This document shows, one piece after another, positions 10,341 through 51,663 of a DNA stretch of 53,194 nt. The stretch spans positions 1 through 53,194 of the forward strand of contig JBAXOU010000002.1 in assembly GCA_037133115.1 (NCBI GenBank). The letters run 5' to 3'. This DNA is from Planctomycetota bacterium (GTDB taxonomy: Bacteria > Planctomycetota > Planctomycetia > Pirellulales > UBA1268). A program made the position numbers and the translations under genes. Under the pieces are notes generated by a model. That model was not told the DNA's origin. It ran no database searches and worked only from the letters and a program-made list of their open reading frames with translations. How positions within the stretch are numbered: position 1 is the stretch's first letter; the number at the start of each line of letters is the position of its first letter.

Positions 10341-10352
10341 GCGTGGTGAGTC

Positions 10353-10483
10353 GGGGTTGTCCCCGCCGCGTCTCCGGACGTTCCCTGCGCCCATCCTGGG
10401 CTCCGCTCACTCGATGCTGGCTGCGCTTCGCCATCCATGGCTTCGCTTGCCAGCAACGCCGGCTCCCCGGCAGGGACAACCCC
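10353..10483. repeat. ~130-bp hairpin repeat, family 1, copy A (inside the nuo operon)
   Basis: GGGGTTGTCCCCGCCG...CGGCAGGGACAACCCC closing stem. The interior GATGCTGGC...CGCCATCCATGGCTTCGC...GCCAGCAAC is shared with the copies at 29498, 43893 and 51336. Confidence 0.8.
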
Positions 10484-10542
10484 TCCTCGACTCAGCCTCC
10501 GCGGAGCGGAGGGCAACCCCGACCCGCGCTGGATGGCACGTC

Positions 10543-20514: not shown

Positions 20515-23500
20515 TCAGATCACCGCGAAGACCGACTTCTTGCGACCGGTGCCGACGACACCCTGCGACTCCGACGCGATCGCGGCGAAGGCCGCATCGG
20601 CCGGCGACAGCGTCGTGGTCGTTCCGACCTCGACTGCAGCCGACTGGGACGCGGGGAGGTAGGAGCCCGTGTCGTAGACATCGCTAGCGAGGATTCCGGT
20701 GATGTCGGTAATGTCGACCACTCCGTCATGGTTGTTATCGCCCTCGCTCCAGTCAGCAGGCAGACCGGTCTCGTACTTACTGGACGTAAGCAGGGCGGCG
20801 ACGTCCTGGATGTCAACTAAACCGTCGAGGTTCGAGTCACCCGCCGCCGCAAAGCCGACGGTGTACGACCCGCCGTTATCCATCCACCCGAGCGTCCGAC
20901 CAGGGTTCGAGGCCACGACCGACGATGTGAAGCCCGCGGTGCCATTCCACGAGCCATCGCTCTTGCCGGCGTTGATCGCCGCAAGGATCGATGTCCGATT
21001 CAGGCCGGACCGGGTCGTCATCTTGCCCGCACCGAAGTCGACGAGGCCCCCGGTCGCAAGAACGAGCGAGGTGATGTCAACCGTGCGGGTGCCGACGTCG
21101 AGCACCACCTTCGCCCCAGCCTGGACTTCCAGCGGACCGCTGCCGAGGGCGGCGACGTTCTGCACGATCAGCGTACCCGCCGTCACGACCGTGCCACCCG
21201 CATGGGTGTTCGCGGCCGTGAGGACGAGCGTGCCCGCACCCTGCTTGACGAGCCGCTCCATTCCCGCATGCACCGTCGAGTCGGTCTGCGAGCCCGACGC
21301 GACAGCGATGATCGTGTCCTGGACGATGATCAGTCCCGAGCCGCCGGCTACGACCTGGAAGTCGAACGAGCCGTTGCTGGCGACGGCCGTGCCCGCATTC
21401 AGGTCGTTGTCGGTCGAGCGGCCGTTGCCGATCAGGCTGTTGCCCACGAAGTTCAGGCGATACGTGCCCGTCGGCGGCAGACCACCGGACACGGCGCTGC
21501 CGCGGAAGGTCACGGTGAGCGTGTTGGTACCGAGCCCGGTGACGTTCGGCTGCGGCTGCACATTCGTGACAGCCGTGCCAGCGGTGGTGCTGATGGAGAT
21601 CCCCGTGCCGGCAGAACCCTGGAACGACCCGTCACCGTCGAGCACTTGGCTGACGGGACCGTCGAACGTCAACACGAGCGACTGACCGCCGGCGCCGGGC
21701 GTCACCGATACGATCCGGACGCGGGCAGCCGCCGCGGTCACGTTGGGCTCGCCCGGCGTGATCGCGGCTCCCTCCACCGGCAGGAGCACACTCTTGGGAG
21801 CCCCCTCGAACACCCCCGCATCATCGCTTCCCCGGAGGTCGCCACCGAACCAGGCTGCGGTTGAGTTGCGAGTCGTGTCGCCCCGTAGCCGATCGATGGA
21901 GTCCGCAACGAAGGCCGCCTGGTAGAAGTTCGTGCCGCCGTACAAAACGTCGCCGATGCCGCCATCGTTGACAGCGATCGAGTCAACGATCACCGCCCCC
22001 GACGGCAGGTCGAGCACTCCATCGTTGTTCCAGTCGAAGTCAAACCCCATCGTGGGAAGGTCGGCCGATGGGCTGTAGACCAGGACGTAACTCGCCGAGT
22101 CGTTGGCGATCGTCTCACTGTTCAGGGCAGCCGACATGATGCGTGTCGAACTGCTCGGAATGCGGAAGCCGAAGTTACCGGGCCCCGGGACGTCGCCGCG
22201 ATTCGAGCCGGCCGACGGGTCTTCCGAGGTGATCACGGACAGGCCGCTGGACCCGTTTTGGTAGCTCCCCAAGCTGAACGTCACGTCGTCGAGGCCCGTC
22301 TCCGGCCCCAGATCACTGTCGATCACGAGGACGTAGAACCCTCCCATGCCCAACGCCGCCGTCCCGGACAGTTCGACGAACTCGTGAAAACTATCGAGTC
22401 CGGGGGAGTTGATGTAGATCTCATTCAGGAGGAGCTGCGCCGTCGCCGGATTGAAATCGTTGTCCCGAATCGTCAGGGACGACATGCCCAGGGTCACGCC
22501 ACCCGACGTCAGGCGGATCGACAGCGTCTCGTCCCGCTCGACCTGAGCGTCATCGATCGTCGGAATCTGAATCACCTTGAAGAGTTCGCCCTCGGCGAAC
22601 GTGAGCGTGGTCGGCGTGGCCGAGCCGATGTCAGCCAAGCTGCCTGTGCCCGCCTCGATCGCGTAACTCACTTGCAGCGTACCGCTCGCCCCGCCCACCC
22701 GATTGACGACGACGGAGGCGGTTTCGCCCTCGTTGACCCGGACACCGCCGTCCAGCGCGAACGCGGCATGGCCAGCTCCGGCCGGGGCGTTGTACAGGAC
22801 CGTCAGCTGTGGCGCGAACGCGTTGGGAAGCGACGACTCGGAACTCTCGAAGCGGAAACTGTTGGGCGAGTCGGAGAGGATCGCCCAGCCATAGTTGGGC
22901 ACGCTGCCGTTCGCCCAGGCCTGGAGCGTGGCCAGATTGATCGGGATCTGCACGCGGCCTGCCCTGCCCGGGGCGGTCACCCTGCTGTCCGGGCGGGCGA
23001 CCGCGACCATGCCATCAGGCATGATGCCGTTGGCGGCCGCACTGCCGGCACTGCCTTGCGGGTCGTCGAAGTTGGAGGTGTTTTCATTCCAGTCCACGAG
23101 CATCCTGTGGAGCGTGATGTTGGCGGTGGCTGCGGATTGATTGAGCACATTGAGCGTCAGGAAGCCACCGAAGATCTCGGCTCCAGCCGGCACTTGCCCC
23201 GGCCCGGACCCGAACAGGTCACCGAATCGCAACAACGCCTGCTGCGGCCGCGTGGCCAGGCCGGCCAGCGACGGCTCGCCTTCGCCCTTCTGCAGGTCGA
23301 CGACCATCTCCTCGCCCTGGCCGAACGCGAGGTCGCGAAGATCGCCGTCGAGGTAGGTGTCGGCCGTGCCGGTGTAGCCGCTGGCGCCCTGTTGGAAGTT
23401 CGCGACCGTCACGTTCGCGTCCACGATCGTGACCGTCGCGGATCCGCCTACGGCCAGGTACTTGCTGGCCCCGCCGCCGGGGACGGTGACGCCCGTGAGG

Positions 23501-25689
23501 TTCACGAGGAAGGTCTCGAAGCCCTCGGCAATGCCATCGGCGCCGTTGATGGGTACGGAAATCGTCGCCGTGTTCGCGCCGCCGCGGAACTGCAGCACTC
23601 CCGGAGCGGCAGTGTAGTCGGCACCCCCGACGGAACTGGCCGTCTGATCGGTGAACGAGTAGGCGACGTCGATGTCGGTCGCGTCCCCGGTGCGGGCCAC
23701 GGTCAGCACGGCCACTCCGGCCGACTCCTGCACCTCGATCGAGGTCACGGAGAAAAACGCATTGCGAAGGGTGTTCGGGGCACCGGGGGTGAGCACGGCA
23801 CCCAGCGGATTCACCACGCTCGCCCAGGGGGCCGTGTCGTAGGCGACCGGCGTGGCCGCCGGATTGGGAATCTCGCCGTTGAACCAGACTCCGATGGTGT
23901 TGGGATCACGTTGCCCCAGCCGACGCGAGATCGCGTCGGGAGTCACACCGCCCGAGCCCTTGCCCGTCGGGATGTGGACATGGACGCCCGGATTGGCCAG
24001 CCCCACGACGCGGTCGCGGTCGTTGCCACCGCCCTCGACGGTGCCCACGCTATCGATCAACTGGGCACCCGCTGGCAGGAGTCCGGTATCCAACACACCG
24101 ACCCCTGATCTAACTTCAGTCTGGAAGCCCGACACACTCGACTGGATCAGGAACCGGTCACGGTCGTAGTCCTCGCCCTGCACGAAGTTGCCGCCGGGGC
24201 TGTACCAGAGGGCATAGGTCTGCGATGAGTTCTCGAGCGCCGGCAACGCCGTCGGGGCGACGGTGGTGCCCGCCTCTGCGGAGTACAGCCAGCCGCTCGC
24301 CGCGATCACCAGCAGACCGTTCGATCCGATCGTCAAACCCGACAGGTTGTAGACGACGTCGGCGACGCCGATGCCGGCGCCCTCGTTCGTGACAGACGCG
24401 CCGCTGTTGTCCTTGCCCCCGCGCTCCTCCTCCTCGCCCTCGAACACCACGAACTGCCAGCCGGCCGGAATGGTGGCGCCCGGCGTGCCGATGAACTCGA
24501 CATACCGCCGATTCGACGGTCCCGAGCCCTGGGCGTTCGCCAGCACCTCGTTGATCAGCAGGTCGTCGTCCGCGATCGTGAGCGTTGCGGCGCCACGGCC
24601 GGCGGCGATGGTCGCGCCGCCCGTGGACGAGAGCGTGACAGCGAGCGTTTCGAGGCCCTCGATCGAGGTGTCACCGTTGATCGTGATATCGACCGTCTTG
24701 TATTCCTCCCCCTCCGCGAACGACAGCGTCGTGGGGCCCGCATACGAGAAGTCCGCCGCCGAGGCGGATCCCGCCGTCACCGTCACGCCCACCGTGGTGG
24801 CCGCCAGACCACCGAATCGAGCCACCGTGAGCGATGCGGTGCGGGTCCCGGCGTCGCCTTCGGTCACCCGCGGAGCGAGATCGAGGAACTCCACCGTGCC
24901 CGGGCTGGAAGCCGACGGCGCCGTGTAGTCGACGACCAGCACGGGCCGGTCGCCATCGGCGGCCTCGGACGATATGAAATCCCATCCGTTGGTCGCGTTG
25001 GTTTCGAACAGCCACCCATAGTTCGGCTCGCCGCTCGACCAGTGCTTCAGCGAAAGACCGACGTCGAACGTCCGCTTTGTCGGGATGGTCGGCGTGCTGC
25101 CGTCCAGCAGGATCGCATCCGGCGGCAGGTCGAAACTCTCGTTCTCCGAGGCCTGCACACCGCCGACGGGGTTGGTGTTGCCGAGAGTGGGGACGTTCCA
25201 CGTCGCGGCCGATTGTGACCAGTTTTGCCGCATGCGGTACAGACTCATTTGCATCGACGCATTCGAGTCGTTGTTGACGGAGACGACCAACTGCGCCGAG
25301 TTGATCACGGATCCGAACGGAATCTTCCCGACTTCGTTGCTGCTGGTAAACAGATCATCGAACTTCAGGAGGCCTTGGCGAACACCTGCGACGCCTGCAT
25401 CGTCCGCGTCCTGTTGATCGACGCTGATACCCGTGTCGCCGCCGAAATTGGTGTCGGGCAGACGGGAGAAGATCACGCAGTCCTGCGTTCCGCTGTAGCC
25501 AGCGACCGGATTGGTGAGCGAGCCGTTGCCGATGCTACCGTCGACGAAGGCGAGCGTCGCCATGACGGCGCGGCCCTCGAGCCGCTCCGGAGCATGGCCC
25601 TCGAAGCGCGTGCCGCGCCGGGAGGCGCGACGGGCCGTGGAGCGGGTTGACGCGGAGCGGCGGCTTGACGGACGACGGCGGCTAGCCAT
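20515..25689 (-). CDS. Giant secreted/surface protein (1724 aa) combining DNRLRE-like, Calx-beta, lamin-tail, PATR and dockerin-like modules
   Basis: Arg-rich leader ending PERLEGRAVMA. Calx-beta ends TLTIADDD, TVTIVDAN and LTIRDND. Lamin-tail starts LLINEVLAN and LLLNEIYINSPG. PATR repeat GAGTLVLTAANTHAGGTVVTAGTLIV. C-terminal DSNLDGLVDIQD and DNNHDGVVDITD are dockerin/EF-hand-like pairs. Confidence 0.85.
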   Translation of the reverse strand: MASRRRPSSRRSASTRSTARRASRRGTRFEGHAPERLEGRAVMATLAFVDGSIGNGSLTNPVAGYSGTQDCVIFSRLPDTNFGGDTGISVDQQDADDAGVAGVRQGLLKFDDLFTSSNEVGKIPFGSVINSAQLVVSVNNDSNASMQMSLYRMRQNWSQSAATWNVPTLGNTNPVGGVQASENESFDLPPDAILLDGSTPTIPTKRTFDVGLSLKHWSSGEPNYGWLFETNATNGWDFISSEAADGDRPVLVVDYTAPSASSPGTVEFLDLAPRVTEGDAGTRTASLTVARFGGLAATTVGVTVTAGSASAADFSYAGPTTLSFAEGEEYKTVDITINGDTSIEGLETLAVTLSSTGGATIAAGRGAATLTIADDDLLINEVLANAQGSGPSNRRYVEFIGTPGATIPAGWQFVVFEGEEEERGGKDNSGASVTNEGAGIGVADVVYNLSGLTIGSNGLLVIAASGWLYSAEAGTTVAPTALPALENSSQTYALWYSPGGNFVQGEDYDRDRFLIQSSVSGFQTEVRSGVGVLDTGLLPAGAQLIDSVGTVEGGGNDRDRVVGLANPGVHVHIPTGKGSGGVTPDAISRRLGQRDPNTIGVWFNGEIPNPAATPVAYDTAPWASVVNPLGAVLTPGAPNTLRNAFFSVTSIEVQESAGVAVLTVARTGDATDIDVAYSFTDQTASSVGGADYTAAPGVLQFRGGANTATISVPINGADGIAEGFETFLVNLTGVTVPGGGASKYLAVGGSATVTIVDANVTVANFQQGASGYTGTADTYLDGDLRDLAFGQGEEMVVDLQKGEGEPSLAGLATRPQQALLRFGDLFGSGPGQVPAGAEIFGGFLTLNVLNQSAATANITLHRMLVDWNENTSNFDDPQGSAGSAAANGIMPDGMVAVARPDSRVTAPGRAGRVQIPINLATLQAWANGSVPNYGWAILSDSPNSFRFESSESSLPNAFAPQLTVLYNAPAGAGHAAFALDGGVRVNEGETASVVVNRVGGASGTLQVSYAIEAGTGSLADIGSATPTTLTFAEGELFKVIQIPTIDDAQVERDETLSIRLTSGGVTLGMSSLTIRDNDFNPATAQLLLNEIYINSPGLDSFHEFVELSGTAALGMGGFYVLVIDSDLGPETGLDDVTFSLGSYQNGSSGLSVITSEDPSAGSNRGDVPGPGNFGFRIPSSSTRIMSAALNSETIANDSASYVLVYSPSADLPTMGFDFDWNNDGVLDLPSGAVIVDSIAVNDGGIGDVLYGGTNFYQAAFVADSIDRLRGDTTRNSTAAWFGGDLRGSDDAGVFEGAPKSVLLPVEGAAITPGEPNVTAAAARVRIVSVTPGAGGQSLVLTFDGPVSQVLDGDGSFQGSAGTGISISTTAGTAVTNVQPQPNVTGLGTNTLTVTFRGSAVSGGLPPTGTYRLNFVGNSLIGNGRSTDNDLNAGTAVASNGSFDFQVVAGGSGLIIVQDTIIAVASGSQTDSTVHAGMERLVKQGAGTLVLTAANTHAGGTVVTAGTLIVQNVAALGSGPLEVQAGAKVVLDVGTRTVDITSLVLATGGLVDFGAGKMTTRSGLNRTSILAAINAGKSDGSWNGTAGFTSSVVASNPGRTLGWMDNGGSYTVGFAAAGDSNLDGLVDIQDVAALLTSSKYETGLPADWSEGDNNHDGVVDITDITGILASDVYDTGSYLPASQSAAVEVGTTTTLSPADAAFAAIASESQGVVGTGRKKSVFAVI

Positions 25690-25765
25690 GGTGCACCTCG
25701 GGGTTGACGAACTGGGGAAGTAAAAAGTTGTGTGGCGCTCGACAGGTCGAGACCTCGATCACGGA

Positions 25766-26968
25766 TCACGGCAGGGACTGGCTCTCGGACTGGAAGTCGG
25801 TGTCGCTCGACTGCGCTGGACGGCTGGAGCCCTGCATGGTGCAGGCGGCCCGCCATACCCCGCGCTCGATGTTGTCGGCGACGAATCGAACGCCGCCATC
25901 GGCGAGGGCGGCGTTGACGCCACCGGGATGGCGGCTGCGGGCCGCGGCGAACACATTGCCGCCATTGGCCCGGGCCCGTTCCTCCCGACAGGGGATGCGG
26001 GTGAAGTCCGGCGTGCCGTCGAGTCCCGTGCCGCAGGCATCGATGACGTCAGGCTGCGAGGAGTTCGGCGTCGTGTTCGCCATAAAGGCGCTGGCGCCGG
26101 GCCCGGGAATCATCCACACACCGCGCCAGTCGTCATTGCCCTGGCTGACGCCGCTGCCCTCCTCCGGCGCGCCCTCTGGGTTGGGCGAGTTCCACGTCAG
26201 CACTTCGCTGAGGATCACCGTCTTCGACGTGCCGTCGGACACGTCCTTGATCCGGGCGCCCTTTCCGAGCCGCCCCCGCACCGGCGATTTCTGAATCAGT
26301 TCCATCCGGAACACGCCGACGTATCCCGGATGGATGTTTTCAAACCCACCATGCTTGAACGAGAAGGCGTTCGCCATCGTGCCCGCGCCAAAACAGGCGG
26401 CGTAGTTGCCACGGCTCAGGTGGGCCAGGCCGACACCACCGCCCCCCTCATCGCCGTCGTTGAAGGGCACCTCCGTGCCCTGGGTGCCGGAACTCGGGCA
26501 GCGGAAGGAGGAGACGGCGTTTTGGTGAAACGCCCGCCATTCGGGACGCTGCATGTCCCACGTGTCGGGCGGGTTGGCTCGGTCGACTTCGGCCGACTCC
26601 AGGGCTTGGTTCGCAAGAGCCGAGAGTCCGCCCTCCTCCAAGTACGAGAAGAGTTGCAGGGCCCAGTTGGGGCCATAGCATGTGCCGCCCGCCTGCGTGC
26701 CGGCTACGATCCAGGGGGCTTTGCCCTCCGTCGGCATGCAGGTCGGACCGCCTGGCGGAAAGTGCCGCTTGGACGCCTCAAAGTTCAGGCACGCCAGGGA
26801 ATTCTGCTTGAGGTTGTTGGAGCAGGCCATCCGACGGGCCGACTCGCGGGCGGTCTGGACCGCGGGCAGGAGCAGCCCAATGAGCGTCGCGATGATCGCG
26901 ATCACGACGAGCAGTTCCACGAGCGTAAAACCGCGCCAAGGCCCACGGAGAGTTGCTGAGGACGACAT
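25766..26968 (-). CDS. DUF1559 protein (prepilin-type N-terminus, H-X9-DG C-terminus)
   Basis: [13 protein letters not shown]|[25 protein letters not shown] is a class III signal, and the C-terminus carries [19 protein letters not shown]. It lies 76 bp upstream of the giant gene on the same strand. Confidence 0.9.
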
Positions 26969-27130
26969 GGGAAGTGCCAGGGATAAACTTGCCGACGCCT
27001 ACTTAGCCGGGCGGGACTATCCCTCGAAAGCGTGAGACCTTGATGAGCGTTGCGTGAGAAGTCCATTAAAGTTTTCTGCTGCTCTCGACCGGGTCTCGCC
27101 GTTGGCGGCGCGAGTTGAATCCGCACCGCC

Positions 27131-29497: not shown

Positions 29498-29627
29498 GGG
29501 GCTGCCCATGCCCGTCACCGGACGCTCGCTACGGGCATCCTGCCCTGCGCTCGCTCGATGCTGACTTCGCTTCGCCATCCATGGCTTCGCTCGTCAGCAA
29601 CGCCGGCTCCCGGGCATGGGCAGCCCC
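29498..29627. repeat. ~130-bp hairpin repeat, family 1, copy B
   Basis: GGGGCTGCCCATGCCCG...CGGGCATGGGCAGCCCC closing stem. Internal hairpins are GGGCA-TCC-TGCCC and GCTGAC...GTCAGC around CGCCATCCATGGCTTCGC. Confidence 0.85.
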
Positions 29628-29643
29628 TCGCTGAGTTCGTGCT

Positions 29644-37448: not shown

Positions 37449-38237
37449 TCACTTGCTGGCGACCGTCCGAACCGCCTTCACCGTCGAGGCGGAGGCATCG
37501 GGGGTCGGCTCAGCGGCACACGGCGCACAGCCCGTGCCCGCACCACAAGCCGGCTCCGCACCGCACGCCGGCTCGCAGCAGCCGTTGCCGGCCGAGCAGT
37601 CGGGCTCACCACCGCAGCAGCTGGTGCCGCAGCAGCTCTTGCGAGCGTGCTTGGCCTTCAGGTGGGCGATGATGCCCATGAGGTGATGCTTCTTCTTCCG
37701 GACACCGCAGCACGAAGCCGCACCGCAGCTGGGCTCGCAGCAGCCAGCACCAGCGTCGCAGGCCGGCTCGGCACAGCCGTTGCCGGCTCCGCAAGCAGGC
37801 TCAGCGCAACCGTTGCCAGCACCGCAAGCCGGCTCGCAGCAACCGTTCCCAGCGTCACAGCCGGGCTCGGTGCAGCTGCCGCAGCAGCTGTGCTTCCGCT
37901 TGCACTTCGCGAACAGGCCCTTCAGGCCACCGAACAGGTCATGCTTCTTCCGGACACCGCAGCACGAAGCCGCACCGCAGCTCGGCTCGCAGCAACCCGC
38001 ACCAGCGTCGCAGGCCGGCTCGGCACAGCCGTTGCCGGCTCCGCAAGCAGGTTCCGCACAGCCGTTGCCGGCACCGCAGCCGGGCTCGCAGCAGCCAGCA
38101 CCGGCATCGCAGCCGGGCTCACAGCACGAAGCACAGCCCTTGCAGCCGAGCATCCGATCGAGGAGCTCGAAACCGAAAGACTGGCTACAAACGGTGACGC
38201 CGAGAACCAGCGCACCGAGATACATCATACGCTTCAT
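37449..38237 (-). CDS. Secreted, extremely Cys-rich repetitive protein (262 aa)
   Basis: Start MKRMMYLGALVLGVTVCSQSFG (AGGAG about 10 nt upstream). There are ~46 Cys by my count, in reiterated GCCEP[AGS]CGAGNGCAEPAC units. Two ~80-aa super-repeats are separated by Lys/His-rich linkers (VRKKHDLFGGLKGLFAKCKRKH, VRKKKHHLMGIIAHLKAKHARK). Confidence 0.75.
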   Translation of the reverse strand: MKRMMYLGALVLGVTVCSQSFGFELLDRMLGCKGCASCCEPGCDAGAGCCEPGCGAGNGCAEPACGAGNGCAEPACDAGAGCCEPSCGAASCCGVRKKHDLFGGLKGLFAKCKRKHSCCGSCTEPGCDAGNGCCEPACGAGNGCAEPACGAGNGCAEPACDAGAGCCEPSCGAASCCGVRKKKHHLMGIIAHLKAKHARKSCCGTSCCGGEPDCSAGNGCCEPACGAEPACGAGTGCAPCAAEPTPDASASTVKAVRTVASK

Positions 38238-38663
38238 CGAGCCACATCTCCTTTGATTATGGATCACCGGTGTGGTCGTCCCGCTCGCGACGGTGTCACC
38301 CCGAGGTTGTGATCCACTACTCTCTGCGGCAGGCCTGTCGAGCCATTCCGTGACTCGAGGGATCTTCAGGTTACTGCCGCCCCCTGGTTGCCCGACGGGC
38401 ACAGTGATGCCCCGGGGGACACGGGGGCTATCGGCGGCCACGATCGACGCTCTTGAACGGTGCCCAAGTTTTTTGTCCTGCGCCACTTGCCCTTGCGCAT
38501 CGCGGTGAGATTGCGGCGTAAGCCGCTTCGGCGAGGCCTGCGGCGCAGGGCTGCGGGACCGTCAAGGTCTCGCGTCAGGGTCATCCCTAACCGGCAAGGT
38601 TTGCCACCCGTGGTGCCACTCCGTGGGAAACTCTGCGGCCGGAGGATGGGTGGCGCGATTTGT

Positions 38664-38691
38664 TTGACAGGCTTTGCCCGACCCCTACACT
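38664..38691 (+). promoter_or_regulatory. Sigma70-like promoter for the riboswitch operon
   Basis: TTGACA (38664-38669), a 16-nt spacer, then TACACT (38686-38691), ~12 nt before the riboswitch P1 helix. Confidence 0.5.
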
Positions 38692-38702
38692 TTGCCTTCG
38701 AC

Positions 38703-38896
38703 TCTGGTGGCCGGCCGCGCGAACGCTCACGCGACCGGCAAACAGGGAACTCCGGTGCAAATCCGGGACGGCCCCGCCGCTGTGACCAGGCGACGAGGTC
38801 GGCCGCTTCAGGCCATTGCGGGATGCGCGAACGACGCGCGTGTCCGTGAGAAGGCATGCGGCCGACGAAGTCTGGAAGTCAGAAGACCTACCAGGT
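38703..38896 (+). promoter_or_regulatory. Cobalamin (B12) riboswitch
   Basis: Core AAACAGGGAACTCCGGTGCAAATCCGGGACGGCCCCGCCGCTGTGACC, the GAGAAGGC element and the B12-box-like GAAGTCAGAAGACCTACCAG. P1 pairs CTGGTGG with CCTACCAG. Confidence 0.85.
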
Positions 38897-39043
38897 GTCA
38901 TGGGTTCGTTGGACCGCGAGGGCGGGAAGGCGGACACGGCCGCCCGCGGCCGTTCGAATATTCGGGTCGTCTCCCCTGGAACGGGATGCCGTGCGCCCGC
39001 GTGGCCGCTTCGAGGCGGCGCGTGCGCGTGGTCATCGCCTTGC

Positions 39044-39865
39044 ATGGCCGCACCAATCCACCAGCCCCACTCCGGTCGAGGCATGACGCTCATCGAGCTG
39101 CTCGTGGTGGTTGCGGTCATCGCCGGCCTCACGGCGATCCTGCTGCCGGCCGTGCAGACGGCCCGAGAGGCTGCTCGGCGGATCGGCTGCCTCAACAACC
39201 TCCGGCACATCGGCTGTGCCCTCCACGGCCACTTGCTCACGCGGCGGGCGTTTCCGGTGGGATGCGCCGAGTGGCGGTCGCCCGGCAAGGCCGGCTCCGA
39301 GCGGTGCCTGGCGTGGAGCAGCCGTATCCTTCCGTGGCTCGAGGAACAGGCGGTGGCCGACCGGATCGATTTCGACAAGCCGTTCGACCATCCCGTCAAT
39401 GCGACCGCCGCCGCGACGGCGCTTGGTATCTACCGCTGCCCGTCGGCCGACCGGCCCGATCTCCTCGTGGCGGGCCTGGGCCGCAGCGATTACGGCGGGG
39501 TCACGGGTGAGCGGATCACCTCCCCCAACAACCCGGAGAAGGGCGGGATGATCCACGACCGTGCCTTCTCCCCGCGCGAGATCCCCGACGGCCTCGCGCA
39601 CACCGTGCTCGTCGGTGAGTGCGCGGCCGGCAGTTGGCCCGACGGGCAGTGGATCAACGGCCGCAACCTCTTCGACCAGGCCTACGCCGTGAACTGGCCG
39701 ACATGGGAGGATGAGCTTCGCAGTCGTCACCCCGGCGGTGGGCATGCCCTCTTTGGTGATGGATCCGTCCGCCTGCTCGGAGAATCGCTCGACACTCGAG
39801 TTCTCGCCGCCGCCTGCACGCGGGCCGGCGGTGAGTCGCTCCCGGTCGCGGGGACCACGCCATGA
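39044..39865 (+). CDS. Short DUF1559 protein (prepilin-type N-terminus, H-X9-DG)
   Basis: MAAPIHQPHSGRG|[33 protein letters not shown], then a C-terminal RSRHPGGGHALFGDGSVR. The start is uncertain: 38900, 39044 and 39083 are all in frame, and 39044 gives a normal-length leader. Confidence 0.85.
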   Translation: MAAPIHQPHSGRGMTLIELLVVVAVIAGLTAILLPAVQTAREAARRIGCLNNLRHIGCALHGHLLTRRAFPVGCAEWRSPGKAGSERCLAWSSRILPWLEEQAVADRIDFDKPFDHPVNATAAATALGIYRCPSADRPDLLVAGLGRSDYGGVTGERITSPNNPEKGGMIHDRAFSPREIPDGLAHTVLVGECAAGSWPDGQWINGRNLFDQAYAVNWPTWEDELRSRHPGGGHALFGDGSVRLLGESLDTRVLAAACTRAGGESLPVAGTTP

Positions 39866-40021
39866 CGCGACCCGCTCTTCGTCAGCCCGGAGGTGCCGCT
39901 ACTCGCGAATGACACTCGTGACCGCCGCTGCCGCGGAGGTCAAGACCACGTCGTCGCGCCGGGTGCTCGCCACCCGACGCGGGTAGCCGCCTCCCCTCTG
40001 GTTGATTTGGAGAGTCCACTC

Positions 40022-40846
40022 ATGCGTATCGCACCCGTCCGTCCGTTCGTCGTTCTGCTCGCCTGTCTCGTCTTCCTCGTGCCGTCGACGCTTTGCAAGG
40101 CGGCGGTGATCGACTTCGAGAATCTCCCGGTCCCACCGTCGGGCTTCTTCAATGGCGATCCCGGCACCCTCGCGCCCGGTCAGTTCGTGGACACGCCCTG
40201 GACGTCCGGAGGCGCAGCGTTTGCCAACATGTTCGGCATCGACAGCTACGGGGGCTTCGACTACCCCTACTGGTACGGCTTCGCCTACTCAAACGTGGTC
40301 AACACGACCGACCCGGCCTTCGAGAACCAATACGCCTCCTATCCGGGCGGTGGGTTCGGCTCGAGCACCTACGCCGTCGCGTATTCCGAGGCGGCGGTTC
40401 TGACGCTTCCTGTGGCGACCACGGTCTCCGGCTTCCAGATCGCCAACACCACCTATGCCGCGCTGACGATGAAGAACGGCGACCAATACGGTTTCTCGGC
40501 CCCGCTCCCCGCGGGCGGTTGGTTCTCCACCACGGCCACCGGCAGGCTCGGCGGCACCACCACCGGATCCGTGACGTTCTACCTGGCAGACCTCCGCAGC
40601 GGTTCATCGCCCGGCGTGATTGCCGCCTGGTCGTGGTTCGACCTCACGTCGCTGGGAACGGTCGATCGGATCGAGTTCTCGTTCGACGGTTCCGACAAGG
40701 GGACGTTCGGGCTCAACACGCCTGCGTACTTCGCGATGGACGATTTCACGGTAACCGCCGTACCGGAGCCGACGTCGCTCGCGGCGGCGTTGGCGACCGT
40801 CGCCTACGGCCTGCGGCAACTTCGGAGTCGACGCCGCCATGCGTGA
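40022..40846 (+). CDS. DUF4465-like secreted protein with a PEP-CTERM anchor
   Basis: Signal peptide MRIAPVRPFVVLLACLVFLVPSTLCKA. YWYGFAYSNVVNTTDPAFENQYASYPGGGFGSSTYAVAY and NTPAYFAMDDF resemble DUF4465. The C-terminus VPEPTSLAAALATVAYGLRQLRSRRR is a PEP-CTERM sorting signal. Confidence 0.75.
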   Translation: MRIAPVRPFVVLLACLVFLVPSTLCKAAVIDFENLPVPPSGFFNGDPGTLAPGQFVDTPWTSGGAAFANMFGIDSYGGFDYPYWYGFAYSNVVNTTDPAFENQYASYPGGGFGSSTYAVAYSEAAVLTLPVATTVSGFQIANTTYAALTMKNGDQYGFSAPLPAGGWFSTTATGRLGGTTTGSVTFYLADLRSGSSPGVIAAWSWFDLTSLGTVDRIEFSFDGSDKGTFGLNTPAYFAMDDFTVTAVPEPTSLAAALATVAYGLRQLRSRRRHA

Positions 40847-41678
40847 GGCCGAGCGGACGGCGGAGCAGGCGGCGGCGATCGACCACAACCGCCGCGCCTG
40901 GGACCGCCTGGCGGCCGAGGGCGTGCCACTTGCGCGGCCGGCGACGGATGAAGCGTTTGGCGACCCGCGCGGCTGGCTGGGCTCGGCGGGCAGCGCCGCC
41001 CGTCCATGGCTACCAGCGCGGCTTGATGGTCTCGAAGTACTCTGTCTCGCCGCTGGCGGCGGTAAGCACGGTCCGCTCTACGCGGCCGCCGGGGCACGAG
41101 TGACGGTGCTCGACGTCTCCCCCGCGATGCTCGCGCTCGACCGTGCCGTGGCTCGCGAGCGGCGGATCGACCTCGAGATCATCGAGGGCTCGATGGACGA
41201 CCTCGCGATGCTCGCCACCGCCCGGTTCGACCTGGTGATCCATCCCGTGAGCACCTGCTATCTGCCCGATGTGTCGGTGGTCTTTCGCGAGGTGGCGCGG
41301 GTGACGCGAGCGAACGGACTCTACGTGAGCCAGCACAAGTCGCCGGCGAGCCTGCAGGCGGGGATCGTCCCCAACGACCGCGGCCGCTATGAACTGGAGC
41401 ATCCTCAGCAGTCCGGCATTCTGCTGCCGGCGATGCCTCCGTCGCGGCTCCGCGAGGCGGGCACTCGCGAGTACGTCCATTCCCTGAGGAGTCTTCTCGG
41501 TGGCATCTGCCAGGCGGGGTTCACGATCGAGGACGTGGCCGAACCCGACCACGCCCTGCCTTCCGCAGCGGTCGGCAGCACGGCCCACCGCGCGGCCTTC
41601 CTGCCCCCGTACCTCCGCGTTCTCGCCCGCCGCACGGCCGAAGGCCGGCCCACCGGGGCCATCGTGCTGGTAGACTGA
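40839..41678 (+). CDS. Class I SAM-dependent methyltransferase
   Basis: Motif I VLCLAAGGGKHGPLYAAAGARVTVLDVSPAML. An 8-nt overlap with the upstream gene supports co-transcription. Confidence 0.75.
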   Translation: MREAERTAEQAAAIDHNRRAWDRLAAEGVPLARPATDEAFGDPRGWLGSAGSAARPWLPARLDGLEVLCLAAGGGKHGPLYAAAGARVTVLDVSPAMLALDRAVARERRIDLEIIEGSMDDLAMLATARFDLVIHPVSTCYLPDVSVVFREVARVTRANGLYVSQHKSPASLQAGIVPNDRGRYELEHPQQSGILLPAMPPSRLREAGTREYVHSLRSLLGGICQAGFTIEDVAEPDHALPSAAVGSTAHRAAFLPPYLRVLARRTAEGRPTGAIVLVD

Positions 41679-43892: not shown

Positions 43893-44025
43893 GGGGCTGC
43901 CCGCGCCCCGTCGCCGGACGCTCGCTACGGCCCTCCAGAGCCTCCGCTCGCTCGATGCTGACTTCGCTCCGCCATCCATGGCTCCGCTCGTCAGCAACGC
44001 CGGCTCCTGGGGCACGGGCAGCCCC
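43893..44025. repeat. ~130-bp hairpin repeat, family 1, copy C
   Basis: GGGGCTGCCCGCGCCCCG...CTGGGGCACGGGCAGCCCC closing stem. The interior GATGCTGACTTCGCTCCGCCATCCATGGCTCCGCTCGTCAGCAAC matches the other copies. Confidence 0.85.
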
Positions 44026-44045
44026 TCGCTCCGTCCACGCTTCTC

Positions 44046-51324: not shown

Positions 51325-51335
51325 TCACGCCGCTC

Positions 51336-51465
51336 GGGGCTGCCCGTGCCCGTCGCCGGACGTTCGCGGATGCCATCGTGGCATCCGCTCTCTGCCTGTC
51401 CGCTGCGCTTCGGCATCCTGCCTACGCTTGCTCCCAGAGCCCGGCTCCCGGGCACGCGCAGCCCC
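51336..51465. repeat. ~130-bp hairpin repeat, family 1, divergent copy D
   Basis: GGGGCTGCCCGTGCCCG...CGGGCACGCGCAGCCCC closing stem followed by the shared CTCGCTGAG flank. The interior has diverged (GCGGATGCCATCGTGGCATCCGC hairpin). Confidence 0.7.
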
Positions 51466-51663
51466 TCGCTGAGTTGATCGTGAGGGGGAGCAGCCGGATC
51501 GGAGGCACGCGCAGAAGCCGGTGACACTTGTGGACGCCGGACGTCGACATTCCGTTGGTGCGCTGAAATCACAAGTGCCGCCGGCGCCGAGCATGTCACC
51601 GGCCGGCTGCGGCGCTTCGCGAGAGTGCCTCGGTGTGATGCACGAGCACGGTTCCAACGGCCC

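Follow-up and report, generated by a model that had tools for sequence, protein, structure and literature searches.

A cobalamin riboswitch followed by a DUF1559 pilin-like gene and a BtuJ-like DUF4465 gene: a probable vitamin B12 capture module of Planctomycetota

The canonical regulons of cobalamin riboswitches comprise btuB, btuFCD, cob/cbi, metE, and nrdDG. The locus described here raises the question of why such a switch should instead stand in front of a gene for a pilin-like protein, a class outside these usual members. It lies in a 53,194-nucleotide stretch of DNA (positions 1 to 53,194, forward strand, of contig JBAXOU010000002.1 in assembly GCA_037133115.1) from a planctomycete of the order Pirellulales (UBA1268), and the whole of this stretch is here referred to as “the window.” The transcript is headed by a cobalamin riboswitch, and its first two genes, here and in its relatives, are always a short DUF1559 gene and then a DUF4465 gene. 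We consider it probable that the locus is a cobalamin-repressed, two-protein B12 capture module of Planctomycetota, with the DUF1559 protein as its dedicated envelope partner.

A riboswitch and two genes across planctomycetal families

An initial annotation, made from the DNA letters alone, had placed a riboswitch core at 38703-38896 behind a TTGACA-16-TACACT promoter, and both calls held. The core falls within a match to the Rfam cobalamin model RF00174 at 38688-38909 on the forward strand (84.1 bits against a gathering threshold of 31.5, E = 2.5e-19). The match is full length (model positions 1-189 of 189) with a long peripheral extension, and it is the single Rfam match in the window, where no other Rfam family was found. 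Its B12 box, AGUCAGAAGACCUACC, aligned to the model at high posterior probability. The sigma-70-like promoter (TTGACA-16 nt-TACACT, 10 of 12 consensus matches) was found at 38664-38691 and is the single site of its kind between 38300 and 44300, for which shuffled sequence gives an expectation of 0.4. Because the promoter overlaps the first bases of the RF00174 match, transcription would begin at the 5′ edge of the aptamer. The start codon of the DUF1559 gene (39044) follows on the same strand, 134 nt 3′ of the aptamer end.

Just 3′ of helix P1 lies a conserved hairpin, at 38904-38935 on the forward strand, that is a candidate P13/L13 regulatory hairpin. The sequence of its loop, CCGCGAGGGCGGG, complements that of aptamer loop L5 (CCCCGCC in L5, GGCGGG in the downstream loop). 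Of 22 loci, 18 have the motif GCG[AT]GG 5 to 9 nt after the RF00174 match, where chance alone would give 0.11 per locus; the loop consensus at those 18 loci is YGCGWGGGAC. The stems, read from the sequences, vary by lineage with pairing kept (GGCUC/GAGCC, GUCUC/GAGAC, CGACU/AGUCG, and ACGUUC/GGACGU), and an automatic alignment placed compensatory changes in three of the five predicted stem pairs. L5 and the loop also change together: UCCCC stands with GGGA(C) at L033, L035, and L036, and the changes are compensatory at L034 (L5 GGCC, loop CGGCCUC, pairing GGCC with GGCC), at L040 (L5 GACC, loop CGGUCUC, pairing GACC with GGUC), and at L030 (UCGC with GCGA). At the two Isosphaeraceae loci, L034 (7760-7900) and L040 (5770-5915), the regulatory hairpin has the variant form GAUGCUU-CGGYCUC-AAGCAUC, in which the loop tracks the altered L5, and the two are a clean natural compensatory pair for an L5-L13 kissing loop.

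From these sequences, the pairing of L5 with the downstream hairpin would be the L5-L13 kissing loop, which in cobalamin riboswitches links ligand binding to the expression platform. The leader thereby resembles that of Escherichia coli btuB and those of the canonical regulons, in which a full RF00174 is likewise joined by an L5-L13-type hairpin with covariation, and the OFF-switch logic of btuB would be expected in the window as well. Nearly all cobalamin riboswitches are OFF switches. The window departs from the E. coli btuB leader in the distance, over 100 nt, that separates its regulatory hairpin from the start codon downstream. A second GC-rich hairpin, ACGGCCGC..GCGGCCGU followed by UUCGAAUAUUC (38936-38953, forward strand), is kept in close relatives and is a weak candidate terminator, uncalled by the terminator scan because it is poor in its U run. 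The folding energy of the leader is ordinary (z = -1.0). Sequestration of the start codon by the 3′ tail of the aptamer, for which RNAalifold proposed a GUCAUG/CAUGGC pairing, was rejected, as the duplex energies at 18 loci were no better than those of other leader windows. Judged by its sequence, the riboswitch looks complete and under selection.

The arrangement recurs well beyond the window. A one-genome-per-species scan for DUF4465 relatives gave 31 loci, and RF00174 lay on the same strand, at 74-87 bits, in every planctomycetal locus of that scan with enough upstream sequence. The informative loci were L001-L008, L010, and L012, from metagenome-assembled genomes (MAGs) of Pirellulales and Planctomycetaceae, and L024, from Tautonia sp. 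JC769 (Isosphaeraceae); L009 and L011, whose upstream ends are missing, were left out. Each informative locus has a DUF1559 ortholog between the riboswitch and the DUF4465 gene (phmmer, E 1e-80 to 1e-175), and the other DUF1559 paralog of the window reached only ~1e-20 against the same open reading frames. From the DUF1559 side, two homology searches recovered more than 240 cluster representatives of a short (~260-280 aa) subfamily at an identity of at least 60%. We inspected nine of these whose contigs are long (Tautonia plasticadhaerens, Thermostilla marina, a Paludisphaera borealis MAG, an Isosphaeraceae MAG, a Pirellulaceae MAG, and four metagenomic contigs), and in all nine, DUF4465 is the next gene after DUF1559 and RF00174 lies directly upstream (62-108 bits).

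Altogether, the order riboswitch, DUF1559, DUF4465 was found in the window and in 20 of 20 informative loci (L001-L008, L010, L012, L024, and L032-L040), with no exception, so that the recurrence in relatives that the initial annotation had proposed as a check is borne out in several planctomycetal families. The carriers belong to Pirellulales, Thermoguttaceae, Planctomycetaceae, and Isosphaeraceae and include the isolate genomes of Tautonia sp. JC769, T. plasticadhaerens, and Thermostilla marina. At distant loci the flanking genes are unrelated to one another, and in Tautonia JC769 the operon consists of the two genes and then meets a convergent gene; the conserved unit is therefore the riboswitch plus two genes.

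The same parts occur in another order at L030 (3598-9568), where the riboswitch is followed by a 1018-aa protein with two DUF4465 domains and then by a DUF1559-like protein that carries the H-X9-DG motif behind a prepilin signal. This bin is unclassified and lower in G+C and is probably not planctomycetal, and the swapped order argues for a functional rather than a merely inherited linkage. Two further proteins are encoded at L030: a radical SAM protein and one of 446 aa that no Pfam model matches and whose composition is porin-like.

These loci bear directly on whether the DUF1559 gene is a passenger, either a mere neighbor of a riboswitch-controlled, btuJ-like DUF4465 gene or one that shares its leader on grounds that have nothing to do with B12. 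DUF1559 genes exist in very large numbers, and chance adjacency to one is for that reason not rare: an exhaustive HMMER search returned 171,632 representative clusters of the parent family (50% identity, E ≤ 1e-3), of which only 230 reach 1e-30 with the window protein as the query, and Planctopirus limnophila alone has 68 DUF1559 paralogs, two of them essential (PMC10632474). Yet in 21 of 21 loci the gene that separates the riboswitch from DUF4465 belongs to the same orthologous subfamily; these loci come from at least four family-level groups with reshuffled flanks, and the parts keep company in swapped order at L030. Other DUF1559 paralogs, furthermore, have no riboswitch, among them the second DUF1559 gene of the window (25766-26998, reverse strand; longer and prepilin-type) and a 612-aa DUF1559 protein in L032. 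The recurrence data come close to refuting a passenger role, which we regard as very improbable.

A BtuJ-like binder and its pilin-like neighbor

The second gene of the pair (40022-40846, forward strand) encodes a protein of 274 aa that matches PF14717 (DUF4465) at 163 bits against a cutoff of 25, in agreement with the resemblance first noted. The initial annotation had also given a B12-binding DUF4465 protein of Bacteroides the name BtuH; the binding is published, and the proteins concerned are in fact BtuJ1 (BT1491) and BtuJ2 (BT1957) of Bacteroides thetaiotaomicron, surface-exposed cobamide binders of picomolar affinity that define PF14717 as BtuJ (PMC13616437). BtuH is a separate, structurally novel class with another fold (PMC13616437, PMC13398666). 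We rejected an assignment of the window protein to BtuH on this literature and on its own PDB matches, every one of which is a BtuJ or DUF4465 entry: phmmer returned 4jqr, 9fct (BtuJ1), 9i2l (BtuJ2), and 9hmu (D5EK51 with B12) at E 1e-15 to 1e-19, two structural-genomics DUF4465 structures being among the matches in that range.

A 2026 study demonstrated that eight divergent DUF4465 proteins, including one of the planctomycete Mucisphaera calidilacus, bind B12, and it identified as conserved binding elements an HI-loop NTPAY motif and a tyrosine of the DE helix (PMC13398666). The NTTY and NTPAYF of the window protein align column for column with BtuJ1 Y146 (DE helix) and Y245 (HI loop), respectively, and among the DUF4465 partners of the riboswitch loci, NTTY is present in 17 of 18 and the HI-loop tyrosine in 16 of 18. 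An AlphaFold2 model (pLDDT 81.6) matched 4jqr, 9hmu, 9qpm, and 9fct in Foldseek at E 1e-13 to 1e-17, with TM-scores, normalized by target length, of 0.72-0.83; B12-bound crystal forms of BtuJ1 and D5EK51 are among the structures matched. The protein thus has the predicted fold and both signature tyrosines of B. thetaiotaomicron BtuJ. With D5EK51 (Coraliomargarita akajimensis, PDB 9HMU) and “Pan” (Mucisphaera calidilacus) it shares the family, a signal peptide, and the HI-loop NTPAY; for those two, binding was shown biochemically (PMC13398666), whereas the window protein is known from its sequence and model. Because the family is characterized, both tyrosines are kept, and the model superposes on BtuJ structures, we strongly infer that the window protein binds B12.

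The binder appears to be exported and held in a manner of its own. Its layout is a Sec signal, an augmented beta-jellyroll domain (~residues 28-246), and a PEP-CTERM-like C-terminal anchor. The signal ends in STLCKA, followed by AV, without a canonical lipobox, and at other loci it has an AxA ending. The tail, VPEPTSLAAALATVAYGLRQLRSRRRHA, consists of VPEP, 17 hydrophobic residues, and a basic RSRRRHA. Of the earlier description as a secreted PEP-CTERM protein, the Sec signal and the PEP-type motif are plainly visible; the curated NCBIfam PEP-CTERM subfamily model is not reached (30.6 against a cutoff of 80), and the protein is PEP-CTERM-like by motif only. The Pfam PEP-CTERM model (PF07589) matches some of its homologs, and a PEP-type tail is present in 16 of the 18 DUF4465 partners, with close variants in the remaining two. 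The anchor differs from the lipoprotein signal of Bacteroides BtuJ, and an identity as a Bacteroides-type BtuJ surface lipoprotein was set aside, because there is no lipobox and because no TonB-dependent receptor is encoded either in the window or at any of the nine loci with called genes.

The first gene (39044-39865, forward strand) encodes a pilin-like protein of 273 aa that belongs to a distinct short subfamily. It scores above cutoff for PF07596 (DUF1559 / SBP_bac_10, 141.7 bits against 23.3), for the prepilin N-terminal domain TIGR02532 (22.9 against 16.3), and for the H-X9-DG model TIGR04294 (34.8 against 19), in keeping with the short DUF1559 protein with a class III prepilin signal and an H-X9-DG tail that had been described at the outset. 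The class III signal is a 13-aa leader, MAAPIHQPHSGRG, followed by MTLIELLVV, with GRG before the cleavage point and with G-1, M+1, and E+5 in place; the H-X9-DG motif reads HPGGGHALFGDG. The pilin motif was present in 18 of 18 DUF1559 orthologs examined. In the AlphaFold2 model (pLDDT 74.8, pTM 0.74), a 52-residue alpha-1 helix (residues 16-67) carries a small alpha/beta head, a predicted architecture that is that of a type IV pilin or pseudopilin. The protein has in common with GspG/PulG, PilA, and ComGC the G-1/E+5 prepilin leader, a hydrophobic alpha-1 of ~50 residues, and a small globular head. It differs from them in the H-X9-DG of its head, in its place away from secretion or pilus machinery, and in its position under a vitamin riboswitch.

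Two more specific identities were rejected. The protein is pilin-like rather than an ortholog of GspG/PulG, because it falls far below the equivalog cutoff of TIGR01710 (21.7 bits against 88.85); the match covers the N-terminal 60 residues only, and no gsp genes are nearby. The Pfam identifier SBP_bac_10 suggests a periplasmic-binding-protein fold for the head, and the model shows no such fold. A phmmer search of PDB sequences returned pilin N-termini only. Some members carry the NCBI label “DUF1559 family PulG-like putative transporter,” and we found no publication behind it.

The subfamily has invariant features of its own: C49, C132, C258, GERITSPNNPxKG, DGQWIxxxNxFDQ, and CTRAGGE, all absent from the other DUF1559 paralog of the window. 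The motifs GERITSPNNPxKG and DGQWIxxxNxFDQ sit in low-confidence loops of the model. In an alignment of 16 paired loci, with alpha-1 left out of the DUF1559 head comparison, between-clade identity was 49.6% for the head against 38.1% for DUF4465, invariant columns numbered 49 of 191 in the head and 27 of 183 in DUF4465, and in 86% of locus pairs it was the head that showed the higher conservation. The head is thus more conserved than its B12-binding partner, which suggests that it is held under constraint by a specific function. The pattern weakly favors the view that the head recognizes something invariant, be it the ligand or a conserved machine, rather than the faster-evolving surface of DUF4465.

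Long proteins among the DUF1559 representatives are tandem DUF1559 repeats or merged gene calls in which a PEP-CTERM tail runs into a prepilin start, and no DUF4465-DUF1559 (Rosetta-stone) fusion was found among the long representative DUF1559 matches. The second DUF1559 gene of the window lies directly upstream of 20515-25758 (reverse strand), which encodes a 1747-aa Calx-beta / CBM96 / PATR surface protein; a second pair of a DUF1559 gene and an exported partner, at 20515-26998, may reflect a general pattern of the family.

What the pilin-like protein may do

What accompanies DUF4465 in other bacteria offers a first clue. Published DUF4465 neighborhoods contain ABC transporters, TonB-dependent barrels and plugs, and beta-propellers, with 40-55% of DUF4465 genes adjoining TonB-dependent barrels and plugs (PMC13398666); that study makes no mention of DUF1559, pilins, PEP-CTERM, or riboswitch linkage in Planctomycetota. 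The btu loci of B. thetaiotaomicron, with their BtuB-BtuG-BtuH-BtuJ relay (PMC13616437, bioRxiv 10.1101/2025.07.01.662609), are likewise riboswitch-headed operons in which a DUF4465 binder is joined by accessory envelope proteins. The window locus, in contrast, lacks BtuB, BtuG, BtuH, BtuK, and BtuFCD, has a core of two genes, and has a pilin-like DUF1559 protein as the partner. Neither the window nor any of the nine loci with called genes was found to encode btuB, a TonB-dependent receptor, or a BtuFCD-like ABC transporter.

At two loci of Verrucomicrobiota, L021 (Lentimonas) and L027 (Thalassobacterium), a TonB-dependent receptor gene directly follows DUF4465, in line with the published share, and a pilin-type N-terminus was found in none of the non-planctomycetal loci. 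As the receptor follows DUF4465 there and is absent from the window and those nine loci, the DUF1559 protein holds in Planctomycetota the genomic place that BtuB holds elsewhere. The Verrucomicrobiota loci L021, L027, and L029 have both a TonB-dependent receptor and a TSP3-repeat protein after DUF4465. No RF00174 match was found within 6 kb upstream of DUF4465 at these three loci, which may be under different regulation or have a riboswitch farther away.

We propose the following sequence of events. With plentiful intracellular adenosylcobalamin, the riboswitch would turn the operon off, and when B12 is scarce, both proteins would be made. The DUF4465 protein would be exported by Sec and bind B12 with high affinity; its C-terminal PEP-CTERM helix would hold it in place, unless an exosortase passed it outward. 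The DUF1559 protein would be processed like a prepilin, with its alpha-1 helix either resting in the inner membrane or built into a pseudopilus like that of type II secretion or type IV pili. As the dedicated partner, it would take over B12 or the loaded binder and move B12 through the periplasm toward the cytoplasmic membrane, filling the genomic and functional slot that BtuB/BtuG occupies beside DUF4465 in Bacteroidota and Verrucomicrobiota. We favor this conveying role because an importer fills the slot in other phyla, because the DUF1559 head is the more conserved of the two proteins, and because DUF4465 has a sorting signal of its own.

The same three observations tell against an alternative in which the DUF1559 protein is a specialized pseudopilin, similar to those of type II secretion, that exports or displays DUF4465 across the outer membrane and never handles B12. 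Its pseudopilin architecture, with a prepilin signal, an alpha-1 helix, and weak N-terminal similarity to GspG and ComGC, would suit such a task, and the strict co-regulation and pairing suit a cargo-specific export factor equally well. There is also a precedent in Verruconatronum alginivorum, a verrucomicrobium in which a PulG-like pseudopilin with 67 paralogs is encoded in an alginate-induced cluster; the authors proposed that the alginate lyases leave the cell through its type II secretion system (PMC13274419). However, DUF4465 already carries its PEP-CTERM sorting signal, normally handled by an exosortase rather than by type II secretion; a protein that recognizes a cargo would be expected to diverge with it, and the head is clearly more conserved than DUF4465; and what other phyla place beside DUF4465 is an importer, the TonB-dependent receptor, and not an export factor. 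We judge the export role unlikely.

The PulG-like paralog of the alginate cluster is, in concept, the closest parallel to the window locus: in both, one member of a massively expanded pilin-like family of the PVC bacteria lies in a substrate-specific, substrate-regulated cluster. The V. alginivorum case differs in having a polysaccharide as its substrate, an induction observed by proteomics instead of one deduced from a riboswitch, and no defined binding-protein partner; its cluster was also read in terms of enzyme export (PMC13274419).

The absence of dedicated machinery bears on another alternative, in which both proteins are simply anchored in the cytoplasmic membrane and form a periplasmic B12 complex. 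This complex would supply a BtuCD-type ABC importer whose genes lie elsewhere and would do the work of BtuF, as its functional analogue, with neither pilus assembly nor an outer-membrane step. Each protein has a single terminal transmembrane helix, N-terminal in DUF1559 and C-terminal in DUF4465, with the folded domain toward the periplasm, and pilin subunits reside in the inner membrane before assembly. No exosortase or pilus-machinery genes were seen in the window or at the other loci, and no prepilin peptidase or pilus-assembly genes were found in the window. The PEP-CTERM tails and prepilin leaders are, however, processing signals kept in all loci, which argues for their use, and such a membrane-held complex would leave the crossing of the outer membrane by B12 (1.36 kDa) unexplained; nor is an ABC transporter ever adjacent. 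This arrangement seems to us less likely still than the export role.

Several points weigh against the proposed capture module with a B12-conveying DUF1559 protein. Contact of the DUF1559 protein with B12 or with the DUF4465 protein is a matter of inference, and its head is modeled at medium confidence, with the conserved loops among the least confident parts. The head has no structural relative in the PDB that would suggest ligand binding, the Foldseek matches being to the pilin alpha-1 helix only, at E ~1. The terminator scan predicted no canonical intrinsic terminator in the leader, and the aptamer tail paired no better with the start codon than controls did, so that the switch may act on transcription or on translation. 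In B. thetaiotaomicron, levels of BtuJ1 are reported to stay high regardless of B12 (bioRxiv 10.1101/2025.07.01.662609), and an upstream riboswitch is thus no guarantee of tight repression. Finally, btuB or btuFCD may lie elsewhere in the genome, as the scope here is the window and the loci compared. By sequence alone, the conveying role, the export role, the membrane-held complex, and chance adjacency are inseparable.

A wider reading of the family can be entertained, tentatively and with more doubt than confidence. DUF1559 proteins could be interchangeable, ligand-specific “receptor pilins” of a planctomycetal uptake system based on a pilus or pseudopilus, with the riboswitch-linked subfamily as the cobalamin member that replaces the TonB-dependent BtuB step. 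The DUF1559 protein would then receive B12 from the BtuJ-like binder and carry it inward, and the uptake apparatus itself may consist of the fibers of the crateriform structures that have been proposed to take up macromolecules.

Flanking genes and significance of the pair

Third in the operon is a class I SAM-dependent methyltransferase gene (40839-41678, forward strand; Pfam Methyltransf_11/25), whose start overlaps the DUF4465 stop codon (ATGCGTGA). It follows DUF4465 in close relatives and is absent from L010, L012, L024, L032-L037, and L040. Because an ortholog (54% identity, 262 bits) also follows DUF4465 at L039 (8325-9176), where the flanks are otherwise unrelated, the methyltransferase is a recurrent accessory third gene outside the universally conserved core. 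Its identification as a CpaM-type corrinoid-associated enzyme was rejected (31.8 bits against a cutoff of 180; the best PDB match is a generic SAM methyltransferase). Farther downstream on the forward strand are genes for an ABM monooxygenase, a PabA-type amidotransferase, and MoeA. These were not retained as parts of the module, being syntenic only in the clade of the window itself (L038 included) and absent from distant loci.

Upstream, and divergent from the riboswitch promoter, the gene at 37449-38240 (reverse strand) encodes a secreted, extremely cysteine-rich repeat protein built of CCEPxCGAGNGCAEPACGAGNGC units with a DNA period of 33 nt. It has no Pfam match, is kept upstream in close relatives, and could be a metal-binding or structural envelope protein. 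The window also contains four copies, 74-89% identical, of a dispersed intergenic repeat ~135-150 nt long (10351-10485, 29498-29632, 43893-44030, and 51328-51475). Its terminal inverted repeats, GGGGCTGCCCRYGCCC ... GGGCAYGGGCAGCCCC, give it the look of a MITE or REP-type element. One copy lies just past moeA, at the end of the forward-strand gene string that begins at the riboswitch, and copies are also present in the related contigs L001 and L002.

The window has a G+C content of 67.5% and a nucleotide identity of ~95% to CAMBSN010000026.1 (L001) and of ~89% to two Pirellulales/Planctomycetota MAG contigs. CAMBSN010000026.1 is labeled Candidatus Kuenenia stuttgartiensis; given the 67.5% G+C and the Pirellulales-like neighbors, this label probably results from an error in binning or taxonomy.

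Riboswitch control of B12 uptake genes is already known, as is B12 binding by DUF4465 proteins, a planctomycetal member included. The DUF4465 half of the locus is known biology, since binding is established for the family and for the Mucisphaera calidilacus protein itself. To judge from the searchable literature, three features are new: DUF4465 is obligately paired with one specific DUF1559 subfamily, its anchor is of the PEP-CTERM type, and no TonB-dependent transporter is encoded with it. Our literature searches found no publication linking DUF1559 to cobalamin, in agreement with the initial belief that the link was undescribed, and the DUF4465 literature is silent on DUF1559 and pilins. Searches on H-X9-DG, on planctomycete cobalamin riboswitches, and on planctomycete PulG-like proteins found nothing relevant, and DUF1559 is treated in the literature, as it had been at the outset, as an expanded family with no assigned function.

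For the organisms, the locus extends BtuJ/DUF4465 scavenging to a lineage with a non-TonB partner and a non-lipid anchor, and the pair suggests a route of B12 capture in which no gene for the usual outer-membrane transporter stands beside it. The uptake of large molecules by Planctomycetota is itself an open question (PMC6474216). Should the DUF1559 protein merely export its DUF4465 neighbor, the pairing would give a useful annotation rule and be much less surprising. Should DUF1559 proteins act as ligand-specific receptor pilins, B12 would be the first ligand for any of them, and the import of this vitamin would follow a mode not known elsewhere. Because the riboswitch names its ligand, the locus ties one delimited DUF1559 subfamily to one small molecule and to a biochemically known partner. 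It is the first ligand-defined context for DUF1559 and an experimentally tractable entry into one of the largest protein families of no known function.

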